Shown here piece after piece: positions 294 through 42,267 of a DNA stretch of 42,430 nucleotides (its first letter is position 1; each line of letters opens with the position of its first letter). The stretch is from the UHGV virus genome UHGV-0382861; one strand, 5' to 3'. The translations under genes and the position numbers were made by a program. The DNA is from a virus. The notes beneath the pieces were generated by a model. The model saw only the letters and a list, made by a program, of their open reading frames with translations, made no database searches and was not told the DNA's origin.

Positions 294-1697
294 TTGAGAA
301 TGCCGCGCACTGTAACACATAAACCGGATAGCCCCAATAATGACGATGTTTTAGCCGCATCTGAAAAATGGGATGCCTGTAAACCTCCCTATACCAGCGC
401 ACACATGAAAATCTGTGTTGCTGCCGCCAAAATCATCCTCGCCGCTTCCGGCGTGGCTCGCCGTTCCAAATACGAAAAGGAGAACTATCTCCGTATCGAT
501 TTCAGCAAAGCCGGTAAGGTTACATTTTACGCCGAGTTTCCAAAAAAGATGGGGCTCAAAGGCAAAAAGCTCGGCGAGTGGCCGGAGCTTGCCATCCAGC
601 TGGCGCGCGAAAAAGCGTTAGGTATGGCTGAAGGCGGCTTGCGAGCTGAGTCCGTACATGCAGCGCTGGAAATGTACCGGGATGACCTCAAAGCCAAAGT
701 TGCCCGGCAGAAGTTAAGCCCGGATAGTTTCACCACCTACGGGGTGCGTATTGACCGGATTAAAGCAACGTTCGGCCCGCGGGAAGTATTCAGCGACGTA
801 ACATACAGTCGGCTGGTGGAAGTGCTCGACGAATGGATTGCCACCCGCTCGAACAATAACGCCCTGGAGTTGTTCGCCGAGCTCCGCCGGTTCTGGAAGT
901 TCTGCTCCCCTACGCTTTGCAATGGCCGCAACGTTGCTGCCAGCCTGCCCGATGATTATGTATCTTCTCGCGTACAGAAACCCACCCCAACACGGCTTTT
1001 CACCGATATCGAATCCATCGCCAAACTCTGGCTCAATGTTGCCGCCTGCACCTCTGTACATCAGAAGAATGCTGTTCGCTTCATGATCATCACCGGCGTT
1101 CGTCCGATTAACGTTCATAACCTGCGCTGGGATTACGTTAATGAAGATGCTGGCGAAATTGTTTATCCGGAAGGGGTTATCGGCATGCGCGGGGCCATGA
1201 AAACACAAAAGGCTTTCCGCCTGCCGATAACGCCAGAGATCCGGCGGATTATCGACGAGCAGAAAGCCTGGCGTGATTCAGTTCCTGAGTGCAATAACGA
1301 TTTTGTATTCCTGCAGCCGCGTGACCCAATGCAGCCATTTTCAAAACGATCGCTGGATAAACTGGTGAAAACCTACAGCCCAGAAGGGGCAGTAAAAGGA
1401 ATGAAGCATGACGGGACTATTAAGGGGAGAGAGGGGGCATTTAATACGATGTGCCGCAAATTCCTTAAGAGCAATGTTATTGCCCTGATGAAGGAAAGGG
1501 GCTATTCCCGATCAGACCGAAGGGAAATCAGCCTCCTGTGCCTTCACCATTCCAGCAAGTCAGATGACCCGATGGCAGAACACTACGACTTTTCAGACGA
1601 AATTTTGCAGGAAGAGATTGCGTTGAAGCGCGAAGCCTTCGAAGCTCACGAACGAAGCATACTCGCGCAGGCTGCGCTGTTACGGCGACGGGGTTAA
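294..1697 (+). CDS. int: Tyrosine recombinase/integrase, P4-type (N-terminal arm-binding DUF4102-like plus C-terminal catalytic domain)
   Basis: 467-aa ORF at the element's left edge, preceded by a very AT-rich 290 bp. Motifs 'ITGVRPINVHNLRWDYV' and a C-terminal 'HHSSKSDD...EHY' resemble the R..H..R..Y region of P4-family integrases. RBS-like GGATTGAGA upstream. Confidence 0.8.
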   Translation: MRMPRTVTHKPDSPNNDDVLAASEKWDACKPPYTSAHMKICVAAAKIILAASGVARRSKYEKENYLRIDFSKAGKVTFYAEFPKKMGLKGKKLGEWPELAIQLAREKALGMAEGGLRAESVHAALEMYRDDLKAKVARQKLSPDSFTTYGVRIDRIKATFGPREVFSDVTYSRLVEVLDEWIATRSNNNALELFAELRRFWKFCSPTLCNGRNVAASLPDDYVSSRVQKPTPTRLFTDIESIAKLWLNVAACTSVHQKNAVRFMIITGVRPINVHNLRWDYVNEDAGEIVYPEGVIGMRGAMKTQKAFRLPITPEIRRIIDEQKAWRDSVPECNNDFVFLQPRDPMQPFSKRSLDKLVKTYSPEGAVKGMKHDGTIKGREGAFNTMCRKFLKSNVIALMKERGYSRSDRREISLLCLHHSSKSDDPMAEHYDFSDEILQEEIALKREAFEAHERSILAQAALLRRRG

Positions 1698-3291: not shown

Positions 3292-4423
3292 ATCCTGCGC
3301 ATTCCATAAACGAGCGGATGAATGTAGCGGCAGCTGGTGCGACTATCGCGTTGCCGTAGGCGCGCAGTCGTCCCACTCTGCTGGTAATCCCATGAGCCAG
3401 CGGGAATGTGCCGGGTTCAACTGGCCGCCAGCGACCATCCCGGCAGAGGAGCCAGTCAGCATCATCCCAGCAGCCGTTAATCGTATTGGGCCGCAGATTC
3501 TCGCTGCGCCGCCGAGTGTCGTTCCCCGTTCGGTATGATTGGCCGCTGCGCCCTCGCCCCGAACCTGATTGTTGTCGATCGTCGTCACTGTCGGCCATCC
3601 GCTCAGGCAAGCATAATCTTGCAGGTTCGGCTGCCGTCCTGCCTGCTGACGCGCTATTACTTTCTCGGCATCCTGATAGGCCGTTTTGGTATTGCTCGCC
3701 AGAGGACTCGGCCAGCCCGCAAGTCTGGATAGCCCTGCTAGGGTTTCCAGACCGCGTTTTGTCTCCGGCTGTGGATTGGTGTTGCAGGTTGGCGTGTACC
3801 ATCCCGCCAGGTGGGCAAAGTCCCGGAGGGAACTGTGCAAGGGGTTGCCGGATGGTCGACGATCTCCAGACATCTTCCTCAGTGCTATTGAGGCGCTTCC
3901 GCCACCGCTGTGATCGCTCGCCGCTGGCGTCGGCCACCCAATATGCTCTGTCTCGGATATGCGGGGCACCGACGCCCGCAGCCGGAAACGGGACAAGCCC
4001 AAAGGCGTAGTCCACTGCTTCCACGTCAGTTTGTACAAGATCGAACCAGGCATTGACTCCCGCAACCTGTTCGCCAAATACCAGCTCAGGGCGTCGCTCG
4101 CTGATGAGGTGGAATAGCGCCGGCCATAGGTGCCGCTCGTCATCAAACCCAGCGCCTTTACCAGCCGAGCTGAAAGGCTGGCACGGGCAACTTCCTGTCC
4201 AGACCGGTTTGTTATCCGGCCATCCGGCCAGACGCAGAGAATAAGACCAGACGCCGATCCCGGCGAAGAAATGGCACTGTGTGAAGCCGCGCAAGTCGTC
4301 TGGTGCGACATCTTCAATACTCCTCTCGTCAACTTCACCCGGGGCAATATGCCCGGCCGCAATAAGGTTACGCAGCCATTGTGCCGCGTTAGGGTCTATT
4401 TCGTTGTAATAGGCTCCCCGCAC
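3278..4423 (-). CDS. DNA (cytosine-5)-methyltransferase (Dcm-like)
   Basis: Motif I 'FAGIGVW', motif IV 'PCQPFSSAG', 'GEQV' ENV-like motif, C-terminal 'YGNAIV' motif X. GTG start at 4423 preceded by GGAGGGG. The variable TRD region is low-complexity. Confidence 0.8.
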
Positions 4424-10198: not shown

Positions 10199-11098
10199 TT
10201 AACCCTCCAGCGCTTTTTCAGCCTGAGCGATCACATCTGCGAGGTTCTCGTCAGCGACTTCACCGAGTTTTTTGGCACCCTGTTTTTCCAGAATCGCCAC
10301 AGCTTCGGCACGGTAACCGCCTTTCGCCAGTTGGAGGATCAACCCTTCGGCCTGTTTACGCAGCACTGCAAAATCGGTCTGTTCGCCAGCTGTTTCGATA
10401 CCGTCTTTTGCCGCGTTTTTACGCGCGAAATCTTCCTGCAGCTGGAGGTACTCAACTTTAGTGATCTCGATATGGCCCTTTTTAAGCAGCTCGTTCAGCT
10501 TGCGTAAGGTATGGAGCTCGCTGGCGGCGGAGCCATCGACGTTCTTGCAGTAGAACGGCCCGGTGCGTTCTTCATCCTTACCGCTGGATTTCGGCTTCAC
10601 TTCATGGCGCCCGTCAGCTGGTGCGTCCAGTAAGCGTTCGGCAAAATCACGACGTGCCGCGATGGTTGGTAAATCGTCCCAGAAGCGCAGGATGTTACGT
10701 GACAGGTCAAGTAACGCTGGCTTGTTCAGATGAGCAGCGCGTTTAACGCCCTGCAGGGCGCTGTCCAGAGCGTCGATCTGCACAACGCGCTTATCGCCTT
10801 CGGCGTCGCGGTAATCAACAACGCGCTTGACCATTGTTTCGCTGAGCTCCTGCGCGTCCGGGTAGAATGCAGCCAGAGCGATAATGTCGCTGAACTCCAG
10901 ATCGTCCAGCGTAACCTTGCGGATAACAGTATTTTCCGCTTTGGTTTCCGGTACTGTTTCGCGGTATTCCTGCACCTGCGCCACTGTGTCCGGGCGGAGA
11001 GCGACGCCAGAGGCGAGCGCGGTGATAAGGCGTTCCAGCAGTTCGTTGTTACGGGTTACCAGCTGGTTATTAAGTTCCAGATTTGTTTCTAAGCTCAT
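10199..11098 (-). CDS. Hypothetical acidic helical early protein
   Basis: Start placed at ATG 11098 (MSLETN...) with a GAGGA RBS 7 nt upstream. The track's 11263 start would run through the upstream small gene. Confidence 0.55.
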
Positions 11099-11244
11099 AC
11101 TGCGGTCCTCGCTACAAGGAGAATGAAGGTAATAGCCAGGCCGAACGCAGTAGCGAGGGCCAGACCGGTGAAGATGTCGAAGTGTTTGCGGCGCCAGCGG
11201 AGCACGTCGCGCCCCGTCAGCCGGTGGAGGTGTTCTGGTTTCAT
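11095..11244 (-). CDS. Small (49 aa) single-pass membrane protein, absent from the ORF track
   Basis: ATG at 11244 with an AAGGAG RBS 8 nt upstream. Product [49 protein letters not shown]. Its TGA overlaps the ATG of the next gene (ATGA). Confidence 0.45.
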   Translation of the reverse strand: MKPEHLHRLTGRDVLRWRRKHFDIFTGLALATAFGLAITFILLVARTAV

Positions 11245-11302
11245 CGGTAGTGCTCCTTTTCATGTCGGGGAGCGCACTGCATCGAATGCGCTTTCAGGTA
11301 TG

Positions 11303-11328
11303 AAAAAAGCCCGTCATGGGAGGCGGGC
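11303..11328 (-). terminator. Intrinsic terminator inside the early-left operon (tL1-like)
   Basis: Minus strand reads GCCCG-N10-CGGGC followed by TTTTTT. It sits between the first small gene and the rest of the operon. Confidence 0.45.
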
Positions 11329-11354
11329 AAAGACTACACACAGCAATGGATGAT

Positions 11355-11555
11355 TCAGAGGATGGGTGTTATGGCTAACGGGCGGATTGTGTATCCATAA
11401 CCGAGATAGCCGTTGCGTTCCTGATAAGCCGCCGCTCTTATTCGAGCGGAGTTTTCGCCTTTAACGGTCGCAACGACGTAATCAGTCGCGTCGGGTCCGT
11501 TTTCTACCACTTCAAAAGTCGGCAAGTATTTTGTTGTGAGCCCATAGGTATTCAT
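11355..11555 (-). CDS. Hypothetical 66-aa protein, first gene of the early-left operon
   Basis: ATG at 11555 with a GGGGAG RBS (MNTYGLTTKYL...). The track's longer start at 11621 lacks an RBS. Confidence 0.45.
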   Translation of the reverse strand: MNTYGLTTKYLPTFEVVENGPDATDYVVATVKGENSARIRAAAYQERNGYLGYGYTIRPLAITPIL

Positions 11556-11763
11556 TTCAGTACTCCCCAGTGGATTAGTAAAAGGCCCGAAGCCTTTGAT
11601 TAATTCACTGCGCCCCATCATCGGGGCGTTTCAATTTGCGTGACTTATCAGCTCGTCGCGGTGTGGTCCTCTACGCTTACCGTACGCATACGGACTCAGC
11701 GCTTACCTCGATCCCATCGGGTGCCATTTCGTTTTGCCAGGAGCACAGCGGCTTACCTGTCAC

Positions 11764-11776
11764 GCGGTTCTGTTTG
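11764..11776 (-). promoter_or_regulatory. boxA-like element (CGCTCTTTAACAA) in the early-left leader
   Basis: Minus-strand CGCTCTTTAACAA matches the rrn/lambda nut boxA consensus GCTCTTTAACAA at 12/12, about 30 nt downstream of the predicted start site. Confidence 0.4.
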
Positions 11777-11802
11777 TTAAAGAGCGATATTACAAAATGC
11801 AT

Positions 11803-11838
11803 TATCTATGCGATATCGTATTTATATGCGTAACGGGA
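11803..11838 (-). promoter_or_regulatory. Sigma70 early-left promoter (PL analogue)
   Basis: Minus strand TTGACA (11838..11833), 17-bp spacer, TATAAA (11815..11810). Overlapped by the near-palindrome ATGCGATATCGTAT (11797..11810). Confidence 0.55.
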
Positions 11839-11857
11839 TTTTGTGTCAATGCGAAAA

Positions 11858-11891
11858 TGAATTATTTTGCAAATAAGAAAACCGCCCCTGT
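11858..11891 (-). terminator. Intrinsic terminator downstream of cI
   Basis: Minus strand AACCGC-N11-GCGGTT followed by TTTTCTTATTT. Confidence 0.45.
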
Positions 11892-11933
11892 GGAGAGCGG
11901 TTTAGTTAGAAGAGCAGTGTCTGACCGTGGGGT

Positions 11934-12608
11934 TTAGTACATGCGTAGTGCAGACTTGGCGATCCCCGCCACGTAATGGATTTTCTCGATGTTTTCGCGC
12001 GATACTCTGACAGGCGGATGATCTTCGTTTACTGACATGAGATGGAAGAGGCCATCGCGTTCGAACAGGAAGGTTTTAACCATTACCTCGCCGTCCTGGG
12101 TAACCACAAGTACTTCATCACCCGGAGCGTAGTCGTGGTTTGGTTCGACTATTACGAACTCACCCTCTTTGATTCTTGGCATCATTGAATCGCCAACACA
12201 TTTCAGGGCGTACGCATCTTCATCCTTTGTCGGCCAGTATATAAAGCCATCACTACTACCTACTGAATACTGGGTGTCGCTCCAAAGTCCTCCTACGCCT
12301 AGCTGAGTGTTTCCCAAAACAGGTACTTTATTAAACCTAAGAGAAATATAAGTTTTTATACCTGTGTCGTCCTCTTTTTCCATCTCCTGAAGGCTCCTTT
12401 CTGCCAGGTCTATTGGTGACACACGGAAGTAGTCGGCGATCTGCTTTAGCGTTGCGTATTTCGGGTCTTTCACCTCTCCTGAAACGAGCCTGTGTAGCGT
12501 TGGTTGGTTCAGCTGTAACCGACGTGCCAGCTCAGTTATCGAACTTATCTTGGCTTTGTCCATCAGATACTTGATGTTTTGAGAGAGGATATCGGTAGTT
12601 TCAATCAT
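11934..12608 (-). CDS. cI: CI-like repressor (XRE HTH plus S24 LexA-type autopeptidase)
   Basis: 224 aa. N-terminal HTH 'ITELARRLQLNQPTLHRLVSG', C-terminal S24 domain with 'GDSM' Ser and 'VKTF' Lys. Confidence 0.85.
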   Translation of the reverse strand: MIETTDILSQNIKYLMDKAKISSITELARRLQLNQPTLHRLVSGEVKDPKYATLKQIADYFRVSPIDLAERSLQEMEKEDDTGIKTYISLRFNKVPVLGNTQLGVGGLWSDTQYSVGSSDGFIYWPTKDEDAYALKCVGDSMMPRIKEGEFVIVEPNHDYAPGDEVLVVTQDGEVMVKTFLFERDGLFHLMSVNEDHPPVRVSRENIEKIHYVAGIAKSALRMY

Positions 12609-12749
12609 TTGGATTCATCCATGTTGTAGACAGGGACGGTGATTATGCGTTATCGGATATTTTAATCCAGGTTGATATAGCATTGCTGTATTGCTGAATA
12701 ATCCGTTTTCGTATAGATTTGCTCTATAGACGAAAGCGGAGACTTAAAT
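12609..12749. promoter_or_regulatory. Divergent operator/promoter region (OR, PRM/PR) between cI and cro-like gene
   Basis: Near-palindrome ATGCGTTATCGGAT (12645..12658) resembles the PL-overlapping site. Imperfect palindrome TTTTCGTATAGAtttgcTCTATAGACGAAA (12706..12735) lies just upstream of the cro RBS. Confidence 0.5.
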
Positions 12750-15427: not shown

Positions 15428-15862
15428 ATGCGTAATATTCAACAGGTTTTAGAGCGCTGGGGTGGCTGGGCTGCCGATAGCAACACCGCGGTGAGCTGGG
15501 CGCCAATAGCTGCTGGGTTTAAGGGACTGGTGGTCAGCAGTTCGTCCAGCAGGCTGAGTTGCTGCGATGACGACGGGCTGGTTATTGATGCCTGCGTCTG
15601 TCGTCTGCAGCAGGTCCGCAAGCCCGAGGAGCTGGACGTCATAATGCTGTACTACGTCTACGGGTTGACCAAGCGTGAGATAGGGCGGCGGCGTCGCTGT
15701 TCTGAGGGATTTATCCGCCAGCAGTTGCAGGTAGCAGAGGGATTCATAGAGGGGTGTCTCTGCATGCTGGGCGTGAGACTTCAGATGGATCCTGAGGTCG
15801 AAATTCAAAGGGATGAAAAAAGTATTAGTGCGCTACGCAAAAACTGCGCTACGCTGGTATGA
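15428..15862 (+). CDS. Late-gene antiterminator Q (QuuD/Phage_antitermQ family)
   Basis: 144 aa. 'MRNIQQVLERWGGWAA...IAAGFKGL...CCDDDG' closely follows the QuuD-type Q N-terminus as remembered. AGAGG RBS. Confidence 0.7.
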   Translation: MRNIQQVLERWGGWAADSNTAVSWAPIAAGFKGLVVSSSSSRLSCCDDDGLVIDACVCRLQQVRKPEELDVIMLYYVYGLTKREIGRRRRCSEGFIRQQLQVAEGFIEGCLCMLGVRLQMDPEVEIQRDEKSISALRKNCATLV

Positions 15863-15887
15863 GTTGAATTTCTGACCTCAACGAAGA

Positions 15888-15911
15888 GGCTCCTGCGAGG
15901 GGGCCTTTTTT
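15888..15911 (+). terminator. Intrinsic terminator 26 nt after Q (tR'-like)
   Basis: GGCTCC-tgcgag-GGGGCC (one G-U pair) followed by TTTTTT. Confidence 0.5.
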
Positions 15912-16146
15912 CTTACCCCGTTCAGGGGAAAAGTTAATAAAACAGGATTTTCACTGCGAAAAAACGCTATGCAATTTGCCCCCTGTTTTATGCACGATTT
16001 ATTCACTCATTTTTGTTCGTTTCGTACAGCTTATCTTGCGTAAACACGCCTTTCGCCGCGAATCCGTGGTGAGTGCCGATCGCGTAGTACCGATAACGTA
16101 CATTATGTTAAATCAGGCCGTTTTTTAACAAATTATGGGGGTTGGG

Positions 16147-30940: not shown

Positions 30941-31128
30941 CCCTCAACAGCCTGCCTGACGGGCTTTCTTATCTCCTTGACCCGGTTGACGCCGGGTTAA
31001 TCCCTTATTACGCGCTGAAGGATGGATCTGTCGATCTGTGCGATATCGCGCTGATGAATGACCACCTGGCCGTTAAGGCTGACAACCAGCGCCGTATAGA
31101 GAAATGGAGAGAGGATAATGAACGCTGA
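30488..31128 (+). CDS. Frameshifted tail chaperone fusion (GT / E+E'-like) via -1 PRF at A_AAT_TTT (30886..30892)
   Basis: Canonical X_XXY_YYZ heptamer in the zero frame. The -1 frame stays open for 78 codons with no start codon of its own (...FFAREPYQRDGG...IEKWREDNER*), ending at 31128, just overlapping the TMP start at 31118. Possible 6-bp stem AGCCCT/AGGGCT 9 nt downstream. Confidence 0.5.
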
Positions 31129-33127
31129 GACTATTAAAGATTTCCTCGTCTCGCTCGGTTTTGATATCGACGAAGCAGGCGCGGAAAAGTTCGATTCAGT
31201 CCTCGCCGGCACGACCGCAAACGCCATCAAAATGGGGCTGGCCGTCGAAGGTGCCGCGCTTACCGTAGTGGCCTTTACGGCTAAGATCGCCTCCGGGCTC
31301 GATAACCTCTACTGGGCGTCACAACGCACCGGCGCGACGGTTCAGGGGATTCAGTCTATTGGCTATGCGGTTTCGCAGGTGGGCGGTAGCGTGGACGCGG
31401 CGCGCTCCTCTCTGGAAAGCCTCTCCCGGTTTGTTCGTAACAATCCCGGCGCGGAAGGCTTCCTGAATCGCCTGGGCGTACAGACCCGTGACGCCAGCGG
31501 TAACATGCGCGACATGGCCGCTATCTTTACGGGTGTCGGTCAGAAGCTCAGCAGCATGCCGTATTACCGGGCTAACCAGTATGCGCAGATGCTGGGCATT
31601 GACGAAAATACCCTCATGGCGATGCGCCGGGGTGTAGGTGGTTTCTCCGGGCAGTACAGCGCGATGGCGAAGGCTATCGGCTTCAATGCTGACGAGGCGG
31701 CCAGAAGCTCCAACAAATTCATGACCTCCCTGCGCGAGTTCGGCGCGATGGCAGGCATGGCCCGTGACAAAATCGGCTCTAATCTTGCTGGTGGCCTGGC
31801 GGGTTCGCTGGACACGCTGCGCCGTCATATCCTGGATAACTTCCCGCGTATCGAGCAGACCCTGACGAAAGCCATTAAAGGCATTCTGGCGCTCGGGGAC
31901 ATCATCGGGCGGCTGTTCTTCAGGCTTATTGAGGGAACATCCAGCCTTATCACCTGGTGGCAATCGCTGGATAAGCAAACCCGGGAACTGATCTCGCTGT
32001 TTGGCGCGCTGACGATTGCGCTGCGCATTCTGAACAGTACGTTCTGGATGTCGCCGATTGGCATAATTACCGCACTGGCGGCGGGGATTGCCCTTCTGTG
32101 GGAGGACTATCAGACCTGGAAGGAAGGCGGGGACAGCCTGATTGACTGGGGCAAGTGGAAACCGGAAGTCGACGCTGCGCTGAAGATGGTTCGTGACCTT
32201 AAAACTACCGTTAACGACCTGGCTAAAGCGCTGGCGAAGCTGCTTAATATTGACCCCAAATCATGGTCCCTGAAGTGGGATTTCAGCAACTTCATCGACC
32301 AGATGGGCGAGTTCAGCAAAATGCTGAACATGATCGCCGACCTGCTTAACGCCATTAAAGATGGCCGCTGGGCTGATGTCGCCAGCATCGGCAAACAGAT
32401 GCTCAATCAGGGCAGCGAAAATCCTTCAGCGATGCCGATGGTTACTGACAGCGCCAACGGTACCGCCGACTGGATTAAAGAACACTGGGGATTCGATCCT
32501 CGCAGCGTGGGCCGAACGGTGCGCGGCTGGTTTGGTGATGATGAACCTGAACAGCTCGGCCAGTCAGTCAAGCGGCCACAGCCAACCAAAGCGGGCTCTG
32601 AACTGCTGGGTTGGATGCAGCCGATGCTAACCAACCTGGAGCAGCTCTATCGGCTTCCGGAAGGTTTGCTGCGCAGTGTGGCCATCACGGAATCGGGCGG
32701 TAATCAGTTCGCCGTTTCAGGCGCTGGCGCTAAAGGTCTGTTTCAGTTTATGGATGGTACGGCGCGCGACATGGGGCTGCGCGGGAACGATGTTTTCGAC
32801 CCGGAGAAGGCCGCCCAGGCAGCCGCAAAGTATCTTTCACAGCTGCTGCAGGCGAACGGCGGTGACCTGAGCAAGGCGCTGGCCTCATACAACTGGGGGA
32901 TCGGGAACGTGCAGAAGCATGGGATGGCCCTTATGCCTCAGGAAACCCGCAACTACATTCCTAAGGTGTTGAGTAACATGCCCGGGAAGGGAACGCAGGT
33001 ACAGCAGCAGAACACCTACCACATTTACGGTGGTGGTGACCCGCGTTCTGTCGGTACCGAGGTCGAGCGTCGGCAGCAGTCGGCAAACGCCCAGGTCATG
33101 CGCGGTAATCAAACGAAGGTGGGCTAA
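31118..33127 (+). CDS. Tail tape-measure protein with C-terminal lytic transglycosylase (SLT) domain
   Basis: 669 aa, helical and repeat-rich. 'ITESGGNQFAVSGAGAKGLFQFMDGTARDMGL' matches the SLT catalytic-Glu region. Confidence 0.8.
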   Translation: MNAETIKDFLVSLGFDIDEAGAEKFDSVLAGTTANAIKMGLAVEGAALTVVAFTAKIASGLDNLYWASQRTGATVQGIQSIGYAVSQVGGSVDAARSSLESLSRFVRNNPGAEGFLNRLGVQTRDASGNMRDMAAIFTGVGQKLSSMPYYRANQYAQMLGIDENTLMAMRRGVGGFSGQYSAMAKAIGFNADEAARSSNKFMTSLREFGAMAGMARDKIGSNLAGGLAGSLDTLRRHILDNFPRIEQTLTKAIKGILALGDIIGRLFFRLIEGTSSLITWWQSLDKQTRELISLFGALTIALRILNSTFWMSPIGIITALAAGIALLWEDYQTWKEGGDSLIDWGKWKPEVDAALKMVRDLKTTVNDLAKALAKLLNIDPKSWSLKWDFSNFIDQMGEFSKMLNMIADLLNAIKDGRWADVASIGKQMLNQGSENPSAMPMVTDSANGTADWIKEHWGFDPRSVGRTVRGWFGDDEPEQLGQSVKRPQPTKAGSELLGWMQPMLTNLEQLYRLPEGLLRSVAITESGGNQFAVSGAGAKGLFQFMDGTARDMGLRGNDVFDPEKAAQAAAKYLSQLLQANGGDLSKALASYNWGIGNVQKHGMALMPQETRNYIPKVLSNMPGKGTQVQQQNTYHIYGGGDPRSVGTEVERRQQSANAQVMRGNQTKVG

Positions 33128-40706: not shown

Positions 40707-41828
40707 TCAACTCAGAGCAGGACCACTATGCTTGCGTCGGATCAGTTTCACGCCTGGTTTTTCGATGTATAAATGACACACATAAGCCATTAATAACGAA
40801 AGTATAAGTATTATGAAAAAACTATTTGTGCCATTAAAATCCGGCATGTAATCCGTAAATAAGCGGTTCACAAACCAGTGACACAGGTAAAGAGAAAAAG
40901 ATATATTCCCTAAAAACATTAGAGAATGAATGCTTTTTTGGAATGATGATAGTTCGTAGAAAAGGAACATAAGAGCGAATGGGATAGCCATGAAAATAAA
41001 ACCACCGTAACCTAGTACGTTAGAGATATTTCCAGTGTATGGTTTGTAAATCCCAAACCACAGACCTACGTCATTGCAGAATATAGTGACTGATAAAATT
41101 GTGGATATCACGAAAAGAGCTCGCCACGCTATCACTGGAATTGTTGATTTTTGAAGGGATAAATACGCCTTGCATAGAATAATTCCTAATACAAACTCAT
41201 AAATCATTGTACTGCTAACAATGTGCAATGCTTGTGAATACAATCCATTTCCATGAACGTTAACCGAAGCGGAGGAAGAAAGAGAAAACTCCCCATTAAA
41301 ATGGTACTGCAAAGCTACAGGCAACGTAAGCAAAACAACGGACGCTATCTCCCCCCTAAATCGATTGGATAGCAGGGAACAAATAAGAAAAATGGCATAG
41401 AAATAAATCTCATAAGTTAATGTCCATGCCACGCCGACCATGCTAAAACCAAAGCCAGGCGCTGGAGCTTGATAATTGTGATGAAAAAGGAAAAATCCCC
41501 TTATGACTGATGTAAGGTCAAATTTAGTGAAGAATAAAAATGTAGATATTATGAATATAAACCAATAGAGAGGGAATATTCTGAATGCCCGCTTTATAAT
41601 GAATTTCTTTGGGTTTAATTCGCTGCTATTTTTTGTGATGAAATAAATTATAAAACCACTGATAATAAAAAATATATCAACACCACCACGACCATTGTTA
41701 AAAATCGGTGCAATATTATCAGGTAGCCTTTCCTTTAGGTGGAATAGAACAACCATCAACGCAGCAATGCCACGCATATATTGCAAGCCCAAAATGGTAC
41801 CATTCCTGTTACGCTGCCTTTCCATCAT
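40707..41828 (-). CDS. Acyltransferase family 3 membrane protein (O-antigen/LPS O-acetylase-like)
   Basis: 373 aa, about 10 predicted TM helices. N-terminal 'LQYMRGIAALMVVLFH' acyl_transf_3 signature. GC about 33%. Confidence 0.75.
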   Translation of the reverse strand: MMERQRNRNGTILGLQYMRGIAALMVVLFHLKERLPDNIAPIFNNGRGGVDIFFIISGFIIYFITKNSSELNPKKFIIKRAFRIFPLYWFIFIISTFLFFTKFDLTSVIRGFFLFHHNYQAPAPGFGFSMVGVAWTLTYEIYFYAIFLICSLLSNRFRGEIASVVLLTLPVALQYHFNGEFSLSSSASVNVHGNGLYSQALHIVSSTMIYEFVLGIILCKAYLSLQKSTIPVIAWRALFVISTILSVTIFCNDVGLWFGIYKPYTGNISNVLGYGGFIFMAIPFALMFLFYELSSFQKSIHSLMFLGNISFSLYLCHWFVNRLFTDYMPDFNGTNSFFIILILSLLMAYVCHLYIEKPGVKLIRRKHSGPALS

Positions 41829-41994: not shown

Positions 41995-42267
41995 CTAAAG
42001 ATGTGGACCCATGTTTCTGACCGTCGGGAACTCAGATACCAGCCACATATCAGACTCCTCGAACATCTCTTCCAGCATGCGGTTCAGCTTCTCCCGATCG
42101 TTTTTACTTGCATCGCTATTCAGGCCGTTCGCCTGCATCGGCTTCACCCTTACTTCGGCATCAGGGAAAATCTGGTGCACTCGCTTCGTCAGTTCTGCCA
42201 GGATAATCTCTCTGGCCCCTTCGAGCCCCTCTACATTGCGTTTGTCATAAACCAGTTCAACGAACAT
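41995..42267 (-). CDS. dinI: DinI-family protein
   Basis: '...KRVHQIFPDAEVRVKPMQANGLNS...DREKLNRMLEEMFEESDMWLVSE' parallels E. coli DinI '...RRIQYAFPDNEGHVSVRYAAANNLSV...DKQRISEILQETWESADDWFVSE'. GGAGGG RBS. Confidence 0.65.
   Translation of the reverse strand: MFVELVYDKRNVEGLEGAREIILAELTKRVHQIFPDAEVRVKPMQANGLNSDASKNDREKLNRMLEEMFEESDMWLVSEFPTVRNMGPHL

Follow-up and report, generated by a model that had tools for sequence, protein, structure and literature searches.

In phage lambda, early-left expression follows the order pL-nutL-N-tL1, that is, a promoter, boxA, a hairpin (boxB, which sits ~8 nucleotides (nt) from boxA), a small gene and a terminator ahead of a long operon. BoxA recruits NusB and NusE in both the lambda and the ribosomal RNA (rrn) complexes (reviewed in PMC12360218). 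The small regulatory RNA (sRNA) RprA is processed to a species comprising nt 60-105, RprA60-105 (PMC3465796), and its last 47 nt, termed RprAproc, coexist with full-length RprA and are active (PMC9262595). Compensatory mutations proved that site I of the csgD leader base-pairs with RprA nt 60-97 (CAGC at -87..-90 with GCUG; Mika et al., PMC3465796), and nt 45-75 of RprA pair with ydaM/dgcM (PMC3465796). A phage leader can itself serve as a regulator, since StxS, the short transcript that Stx phages make from PR' to tR', works as an Hfq sRNA (PMC7547250). Here, we compare these systems with the early-left leader of the UHGV virus genome UHGV-0382861, a stretch of 42,430 nt.

This whole 42-kilobase (kb) stretch, hereafter the window, is an entire prophage. 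Its leader elements lie on the minus strand, to the left of the gene for a CI-type repressor. An earlier note on the sequence had read the region as a point-by-point analogue of lambda pL-nutL-N-tL1, with a boxB-like GC hairpin and a 66-amino acid (aa) gene in the place of N. All of the elements it listed are present on the minus strand, but its coordinates for the promoter, boxA and the hairpin were ~10-11 nt too low. The analogy holds for the promoter, boxA, the terminator and the operon and fails for boxB and the N gene; a small hairpin (11597..11580), a structured domain of ~125 nt (11765..11639) and the RprA homology of the terminator had been overlooked. The reading that we favor, with a probability of roughly 55%, is that early-left control involves a leader protected by boxA and Nus factors, an attenuating terminator that would release an RprA-mimic sRNA, and read-through that would express the replication operon.

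The candidate early-left (pL-like) promoter is a near-consensus sigma-70 sequence, TTGACA-17-TATAAA, located at 11849..11821 (and not at 11838..11810, as first placed), with a predicted start near 11814. It is the sole site in the window within one mismatch of TTGACA-N17-TATAAT, where 0.08 are expected by chance, and it is conserved among relatives that share the immunity type. An operator-like 18-mer, TATGCGTAACGGGATTTT (11825..11842, no strand assigned; direct repeat D2), overlaps the promoter spacer and the -10 element. A second copy, 78% identical, lies in the cI/cro intergenic region at 12644-12661, so that the 18-mer is probably a repressor site, as expected for shared operators.

BoxA, GCTCTTTAACAA (in the leader, GCUCUUUAACAA), occupies 11785..11774 on the minus strand and matches the rrn consensus at 12 of 12 positions. 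The string first reported for it, CGCTCTTTAACAA, spans 11786..11774 rather than 11776..11764, while its 12/12 match and its distance of ~30 nt past the promoter (~29 nt measured) both stand. It is the only exact match in the window (0.14 expected at up to one mismatch), and a search of the 42 kb at up to one mismatch, including the right operon, gave no second boxA and thus no second nut site. BoxA lies ~220 nt from the first ribosome-binding site (RBS) and >200 nt from any RBS. The untranslated leader measures ~260 nt here and ~330 nt in the short-form relatives described below, and no RfaH ops element was found in it.

Related loci were collected by scanning IMG/VR with a leader motif that excludes boxA, which yielded 78 contigs. 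Exact GCTCTTTAACAA was present in 75 of these, a version with one mismatch in 1 and none in 2, one of which is a chance match. Across the 75 contigs, boxA keeps a fixed spacing of 43-45 nt upstream of the motif. The DNA upstream of boxA is mosaic, with at least seven unrelated promoter/operator (immunity) types, and similarity between these types starts ~2 nt before boxA. Thus, the leader is a module plugged into different immunity regions with boxA as its first element, and boxA is, across these sequences, the best-conserved landmark of the region. Two contigs, L004 (9814-9825 and 10412-10423) and L054, carry boxA twice at an interval of ~600 nt, and the second leader has no obvious promoter ahead of it, which suggests a duplicated or compound leader. 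Related genomes found by BLAST were four E. coli isolates (vB_EcoM-606R2 and relatives) and the Yersinia phages YeP4-6. Among 5426 complete E. coli genomes, 104 (~2%) contain the leader, always without annotation, and it was absent from the plasmid collection. A scan of GTDB species representatives for boxA plus leader gave four matches, among which the covariance model introduced below confirms only Trabulsiella guamensis.

The replication module of the prophage is APSE-like, which allows boxA to be followed into a more distant phage. In Hamiltonella defensa phage APSE-2, TTGCTCTTTAACAATTTA (containing exact GCTCTTTAACAA) stands behind a promoter of its own, ~430 nt ahead of the homologous operon. 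The arrangement there (L184 61-135) is TTGACT-17-CATAAT, then boxA, ahead of the P53/P51/P50/polymerase operon, and the flanks of this boxA presumably also match the E. coli rrn sequence. The rest of the ~430-nt leader is unrelated to that of the window. Since APSE-2 has boxA ahead of the homologous operon, boxA is conserved far beyond the rest of the leader.

A structured RNA domain of ~125 nt (11765..11639, minus strand) begins 8 nt after boxA, in the position that boxB takes in the lambda nut site. It comprises a closing stem (GCGUGAC/GUCACGC), a four-way junction and inner helices, and the loop CCUGGCAAAACGAAAUGGC and the element GUAGAGGA are invariant. Four leader sequence types, A-D, are known. 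RNAalifold applied to 13 sequences of types A-C gave 32 pairs, 8 of them compensatory; 96.3% of the cells were paired, versus 21-41% with slid partners, and the covariation score was 0.208, versus at most 0.071 for the slid controls. With 51 distinct sequences, 97.9% of the cells were paired and 16 of the 32 pairs were compensatory, including 6 of 7 in the closing stem, whereas the slid controls gave 2-5 pairs. A covariance model of the leader, trained on the sequences of types A-C, scored 182.8 bits on 11785..11636 of the window and recovered type-D (Yersinia) leaders, on which it had not been trained, at ~30 bits (E ~1e-5). No Rfam family matched the leader domain at gathering level in the window or in four related loci. 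By its covariation, this is a new, previously undescribed structured RNA after boxA. One natural variant, L042, has a hairpin cleanly deleted exactly between two GGUAAGCG repeats. The domain also holds GGUAAGC three times, and GGA motifs that resemble CsrA-binding sites (UGGGAU; AAGGAU or ACGGAU in a hairpin loop; GUAGAGGA) are conserved across the types.

The terminator ahead of the operon, which the earlier note had likened to tL1, was placed exactly, with GCCCG..CGGGC and T6 at 11328..11303. It forms part of a 45-nt module (11347..11303, minus strand) that is homologous to the 3' part of RprA and consists of a seed, AUUGCUGUGUGUAGUCUUUGCC (11347..11326), the terminator hairpin (11328..11309) and U6 (11308..11303). 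The seed, a 22-mer, is identical to E. coli RprA nt 60-81 at 22 of 22 positions, and the match extends to the U-tail; the terminator loop, CCUCCCAUGA, is phage-specific. The Rfam RprA model (RF00034) scored 56.4 bits (E = 5e-6) on 11404-11299, under its gathering score of 70, and only the 3' part aligns convincingly. This sub-threshold match was the only meaningful one at E <= 10, and none was obtained at gathering level in the window and four related loci. BLAST against the 5426 E. coli genomes matched annotated rprA in 5424 (45 nt at 91% identity) and ~190 further places, 30 of them on plasmids.

The conservation of the module was assessed in 61 loci that had been found via the leader alone. 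Of these, 42 have the exact seed and 19 a seed with one base changed, and the 15 nt upstream of the seed are 30-70% conserved. The terminator stems vary with compensation (GCCCG/CGGGC, GCCCCUC/GAGGGGC, GCCUGUC/GACAGGC) and range from -7.7 to -16.8 kcal/mol, with -9.8 kcal/mol and U6 in the window. In the predicted fold, the seed is mostly unpaired and is followed by the rho-independent terminator and the U-tail.

The seed retains the complementarity of RprA to csgD: at site I in the E. coli leader of this gene, it is predicted to form 15 contiguous pairs at -29.7 kcal/mol, versus -29.8 kcal/mol for RprA60-105, and none of 500 shuffled seeds reached this duplex energy. The 33 nt upstream of the seed paired with the rpoS leader no better than shuffles did, whereas RprA30-62 finds the known site at -22.8 kcal/mol. 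An rpoS-activating function of the module was rejected on these grounds, as there is no pairing and the module is without RprA nt 1-59 and thus without the rpoS-pairing region (nt ~30-60). With csgD pairing kept and rpoS pairing gone, the module therefore mimics only processed RprA. Inside the phage itself no target was found, since the best non-self seed duplex (-26.0 kcal/mol) is within the range of shuffled seeds. An attP or integration-site origin of the homology was also considered and rejected, because the element is situated 11 kb into the prophage, a long way from the integrase-like gene (294-1697).

The module is found well outside this group of phages. An exact-seed scan of IMG/VR returned at least 120 contigs, and the 135 modules collected represent at least 35 upstream contexts. 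The temperate phages have it on the strand of their repressor gene and downstream of that gene: in the large Eeyore/Flotzy/LLS-type group (E. coli phage Eeyore, L183 ~3571-3625) it follows a CI-like gene by ~500-650 nt, without boxA, and in Cronobacter phiES15 (L186 ~1501-1545) it is located between the DicA-like repressor gene and kil. Lytic N4-like Erwinia phages have it directly after thymidylate synthase (Ea9-2, L185 ~1201-1243), and the jumbo Erwinia phage pEa_SNUABM_1 carries it at L187 ~1001-1070. An RprA(60-105)-like module is present in 812 plasmid records, mostly of large plasmids, including 749 from Klebsiella and 576 predicted to be conjugative. RprA controls plasmid conjugation in Salmonella through ricI. 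No annotated feature underlies the module in 25 sampled plasmids, and no RNA feature does so in the phage records shown, in a few of which 'hypothetical protein' calls overlap it. Because the leader covariance model had no match in phiES15, the Eeyore-type and Erwinia phages or APSE-2, the RNA domain and the RprA module are to be seen as units that are independent of each other. Together, these sequences suggest that a portable copy of processed RprA is found on Enterobacterales mobile elements of many kinds: several unrelated groups of temperate phages (in which it typically closes the early-left leader), lytic N4-like and jumbo phages, and hundreds of Klebsiella plasmids. A description of phage or plasmid RprA copies was not found in the searchable literature, in which coverage of subscription journals is incomplete, so that an earlier description is possible. 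Leaders of types C and D (L005, L024, L045, L059, L061; YeP4, L002 3293-3300) are without the module and have a conserved hairpin, CCUGCCGC..GCGGUAGG, at their end; immediately ahead of the first gene, the 3' arm of this hairpin includes GGCGGTAG, which corresponds to positions 1-8 of the ops consensus.

Between the leader and the module lies a slot with variable contents. The conserved leader ends with the GC hairpin ACGCCCC-GAUGAU-GGGGCG(U), which is located at 11629..11611 on the minus strand (-12.9 kcal/mol, z = -3.2) and, as the earlier note had said, is without a U-tract on this strand. It lies ~145 nt past boxA, beyond the structured domain, and its hexaloop varies even among close relatives (GATGAT, GACGAT, GATGCA, GTTGAT, GATTAT, GATGAC). 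Because of this distance and the variable loop, the hairpin is not boxB-like. On the opposite (plus) strand it scores as terminator-like, and in relatives of the 606R2 type an antisense 189-aa gene ends ~50 nt before it; in such relatives, the hairpin could serve as the terminator of the antisense cargo gene. The 5' junction of the slot (11610..11556, minus strand) consists of CAGUGAAUUAAUC, the small hairpin AAAGGC-UUCGG-GCCUUU with a UUUU tail (11597..11580, -6.9 kcal/mol), ACUAAUCCACUG and the RBS GGGGAG (11568..11563). This strong RBS lies 7 nt before the ATG of the 66-aa open reading frame (ORF; 11555..11355, phrog_16707), as had been described, and the 3' junction, CUGAAUCAUCC (11358..11348), includes its stop codon (11357..11355).

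Comparison with relatives indicates that the 66-aa gene is one of many occupants of this slot. The leader motif and the terminator module are separated by 177-873 nt. Fixed junctions, CAGUGAAUUAAUCAAAGGCUUCGGGCCUUUUACUAAUCCACUG at the 5' end and CUGAAUCAUCC at the 3' end, flank every cargo, of which there are at least 10 different small ORFs. Contents other than the 66-aa gene include unrelated small ORFs, two tandem cassettes (L068, where the 5' junction precedes each cargo), a 174-aa protein and an antisense ORF. In ~17 short-form loci the slot is empty, with the leader, the GC hairpin and the small hairpin followed by the seed and terminator; here, the RBS of the 49-aa gene that opens the operon comes directly after the U-tract, and the ATG ~15 nt past it. 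The 66-aa gene is also absent from Yersinia YeP4, and its homologues occur in Salmonella phage pink (a Jerseyvirus), Pantoea PdC23 and phiWAO78-1. The cargo proteins have no informative Pfam or PHROG match, and the 66-aa ORF, which has no Pfam hit, matches only phrog_16707. As the protein is dispensable among relatives, it cannot be the antiterminator of the conserved leader, and by these comparisons the gene is a swappable cargo rather than a conserved partner of the leader. On Klebsiella plasmids, CUGAAUCAUCC and an RprA-like terminator likewise follow an unrelated ORF of 86 aa, which lies between IS5 copies (L191 1729-2045; one example inspected). The cargo slot is a defined hotspot for small accessory genes.

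Downstream of the module, the hairpin AGCGCAUU..AGUGCGCU (11292..11271, minus strand; -10.3 kcal/mol, z = -2.1) lies between the terminator and the first RBS of the operon. The first conserved gene of the replication operon encodes a 49-aa membrane protein (11244..11095, minus strand; phrog_11981, 1.4e-33), and it is followed by genes for a 299-aa protein, a nuclease, an SSB-like protein, PolA, a PAPS-reductase-like protein, a C5-methylase and an SNF2 helicase. The operon extends for 9.4 kb, in agreement with the long replication operon reported earlier. The 49-aa protein combines a basic N-terminus, RLTGRDVLRWRRKH, with a transmembrane helix at its C-terminus; no other product near the leader is arginine-rich. 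A promoter scan found no promoter-like site between the terminator and the operon. Since the operon has no promoter of its own there, and since the short-form RBS follows the U-tract directly, read-through is likely to be obligatory.

From these elements, we infer the following course of events. When the CI-type repressor is absent, the sigma-70 promoter at 11849..11821 would start a long, mostly untranslated leader. As at rRNA operons, boxA, ~29 nt into the RNA, would bring in host NusB/NusE, which in turn would attract NusA and NusG. This complex, perhaps with the ~125-nt domain, would render RNA polymerase Rho-resistant and more processive, and transcription would cross the 300-500 nt leader and go on into the 9.4-kb operon, which is without its own promoter. 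The slot between leader and operon would host accessory cassettes (here the 66-aa ORF), and the RprA-type terminator behind it would act as an attenuator that splits the flux between termination and read-through. The terminated RNAs, trimmed by RNase E at the AUU just before the seed, would become an Hfq-type sRNA of ~45 nt that bears the anti-csgD/dgcM seed of RprA and not its rpoS-activating part.

Several other explanations have to be weighed against this one. If the locus were a lambda-like N system, boxA and the GC hairpin would constitute nut, the 66-aa protein would be an antiterminator unrelated to N, and 11328..11303 would be its tL1. The order of promoter, boxA, hairpin, small gene, terminator and long operon is indeed that of pL-nutL-N-tL1, but most of the relatives with boxA, leader and operon either have no such gene or carry another in its place, its homologue in phage pink lies among structural genes, and the protein is, as the earlier note already stated, not arginine-rich. 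Together with the single boxA, which has no counterpart in the right operon, the missing Pfam hit, and the distance and variable loop of the GC hairpin, this makes an N-type system extremely improbable. A role as antiterminator could instead fall to the ~125-nt domain, as a put-like cis-acting RNA with a direct effect on RNA polymerase or as a docking site for a protein of host or phage, with boxA as a helper. The domain lies 8 nt after boxA, at the boxB position; it has a strong structure with covariation and invariant loops; no N-like protein was found among the window proteins in Pfam and PHROG searches; and an intrinsic terminator must be crossed. Against this, APSE-2 has boxA without the domain, Rfam holds no similar family, and the GGA-containing loops could equally mean CsrA binding. 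We consider this explanation, which overlaps with the favored one, to be unlikely.

BoxA could also act negatively, as in suhB/hisG, with NusB/NusE promoting Rho termination and keeping leaky lysogen transcription away from the replication genes. BoxA-Nus complexes can enhance Rho termination in some contexts, and a long untranslated leader is a natural Rho substrate; the suhB effect, however, works through a boxA close to the RBS (PMC12360218), and here any RBS is >200 nt away. The phage, moreover, needs the operon for replication, and boxA is the most conserved element of the leader, so that a positive role fits better and a negative one is quite doubtful. A more serious competitor, which we still regard as somewhat improbable, concerns the RprA-like sequence alone: it may be an efficient terminator or stabilizing 3' end, and possibly an Hfq platform, that was captured from the host and spread with cassettes, without regulation in trans. 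In accordance with this, the module always lies where a terminator is expected, moves with the junction CUGAAUCAUCC behind unrelated small ORFs in phages and Klebsiella plasmids, is dispensed with by some relatives, and has no target inside the phage. Yet a terminator has no need of the 22 nt upstream of the stem, which are far better conserved than the stem, loop and flanks, which are identical across unrelated contexts, including lytic phages, and which are exactly the RprA bases that pair with csgD and ydaM.

The proposal of a boxA-protected leader with an RprA-mimic attenuator also has to face a number of points that weigh against it. Promoter use, Nus recruitment, termination, binding and the sRNA are predicted from the sequence. 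The -10 element TATAAA is without the usual conserved T at position 6, which is why a consensus scan skipped the promoter. The IMG/VR contigs are partly redundant, the 51-sequence alignment was fitted to the model, and the covariation is supplied by only four leader lineages (A-D). Nus complexes of the rrn type are good against Rho-dependent termination and poor against intrinsic terminators, so read-through of the window's hairpin (-9.8 kcal/mol, U6) may take more than boxA alone. Since pL should be repressed in the lysogen, synthesis of the sRNA would be confined to infection or induction. The module is missing from some relatives, namely L009 and leader types C and D (YeP4 among them), and it is therefore not essential to the job of the leader. 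Finally, conservation of the seed could reflect a cis role or protein (Hfq) binding instead of pairing in trans, and Erwinia amylovora hosts may lack csgD.

Beyond the leader, the prophage has a left and a right operon. The CI-type repressor gene (11934..12608, on the minus strand like the leader) encodes 224 aa with a helix-turn-helix (HTH) domain and an S24 peptidase domain (Pfam Peptidase_S24, 2.2e-18; HTH_26, 1.9e-12). The terminator scan placed an intrinsic terminator of this gene at 11879..11903 on the minus strand, with a 10-bp stem followed by UUUUCUUAUUU (-13.9 kcal/mol, z = -4.2). The right operon contains a cro-like gene, a primase gene and, after it, a Q-type antiterminator gene (15428-15862, plus strand; PF06530, 2.6e-51), and the 270-nt gap behind the Q-type gene (15863-16134) should hold the late promoter and a terminator. 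An exact match to the RfaH ops element, GGCGGTAGCGTG, is located at 31382-31393 (plus strand) inside a 669-aa ORF (31118-33127) in the tail-gene region; as 2.6 ops matches at up to one mismatch are expected by chance, this site is not clearly above chance. Toward the ends of the prophage lie the integrase-like gene (294-1697, plus strand), a gene for an acyltransferase-3-like membrane protein (40707-41828, minus strand), for which O-antigen modification is a possible function, and a DinI-like gene (41995-42267, minus strand). No host flank is visible at the ends of the window.

Two bolder readings, each of which would be new, are less likely than not: mobile RprA(60-105) copies might act in trans on 3'-seed targets of RprA such as csgD/dgcM, and in this phage family the module might also be an attenuator that is passed by a device made of boxA and the RNA domain and using host factors only. 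If they are true, the module would hit csgD/dgcM on infection or induction, and hence curli and the biofilm matrix, without switching on RpoS, and plasmid carriage could silence csgD/dgcM likewise. The leader would then represent a third phage antitermination route, beside the N/Q proteins and the put RNA, and a compact, transplantable element for the expression of long operons. The RprA(60-105) mimic would clearly show that mobile elements can copy just the processed half of a core sRNA, the half with the seed, and it could help to explain the strong conservation of the RprA 3' half. With the leader in ~2% of complete E. coli genomes and the module on hundreds of plasmids, both also mark an annotation gap.

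Compared with lambda pL-nutL-N-tL1, the window has the same type of repressor-controlled early-left promoter on the cI strand, boxA ~30 nt into the transcript, a structured RNA 8 nt after boxA, and terminators before a long early operon. Unlike lambda, it has no boxB-type hairpin with a 5-bp stem and pentaloop, no arginine-rich N and no second nut in the right operon; its small gene is cargo, and its boxA is the full rrn consensus. The mEpimmI 'Nus-dependent non-lambdoid' coliphages (PMC11893012) were considered as a parallel and set aside: they are a separate group and have three nut sites as well as an N-like Gp17. With rrn antitermination (NusB/E/A/G, SuhB, S4) and boxA-bearing leaders of further untranslated RNAs, the locus shares a boxA, matched at 12/12 positions, with which a long RNA begins that is not translated and would otherwise be exposed to Rho; it differs in its phage context, in the new 125-nt domain, in the intrinsic terminator downstream, and in that no boxC was recognised. 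The likeness to HK022 put is one of description, in that both are structured RNAs from early leaders of temperate phages without N; put is smaller, with two stem-loops and no boxA.

For the module, the closest relatives are RprA60-105 and RprAproc, with which it has in common the 22-nt seed (nt 60-81), the same hairpin architecture and U-tail, and the same predicted csgD duplex. Unlike RprA, which is encoded between ydiK and ydiL and driven by Rcs, the module is without nt 1-59, scores below the Rfam gathering threshold, and lies in the leader or 3' untranslated region of a phage operon, behind a promoter that is probably repressor-controlled. StxS differs in that it comes from a late, Q-controlled promoter, is made in lysogens, is unrelated in sequence and activates rpoS. 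It nevertheless provides the precedent for the arrangement suggested here, in which a leader RNA that ends at a terminator which must be overcome doubles, after RNase E processing, as an sRNA.

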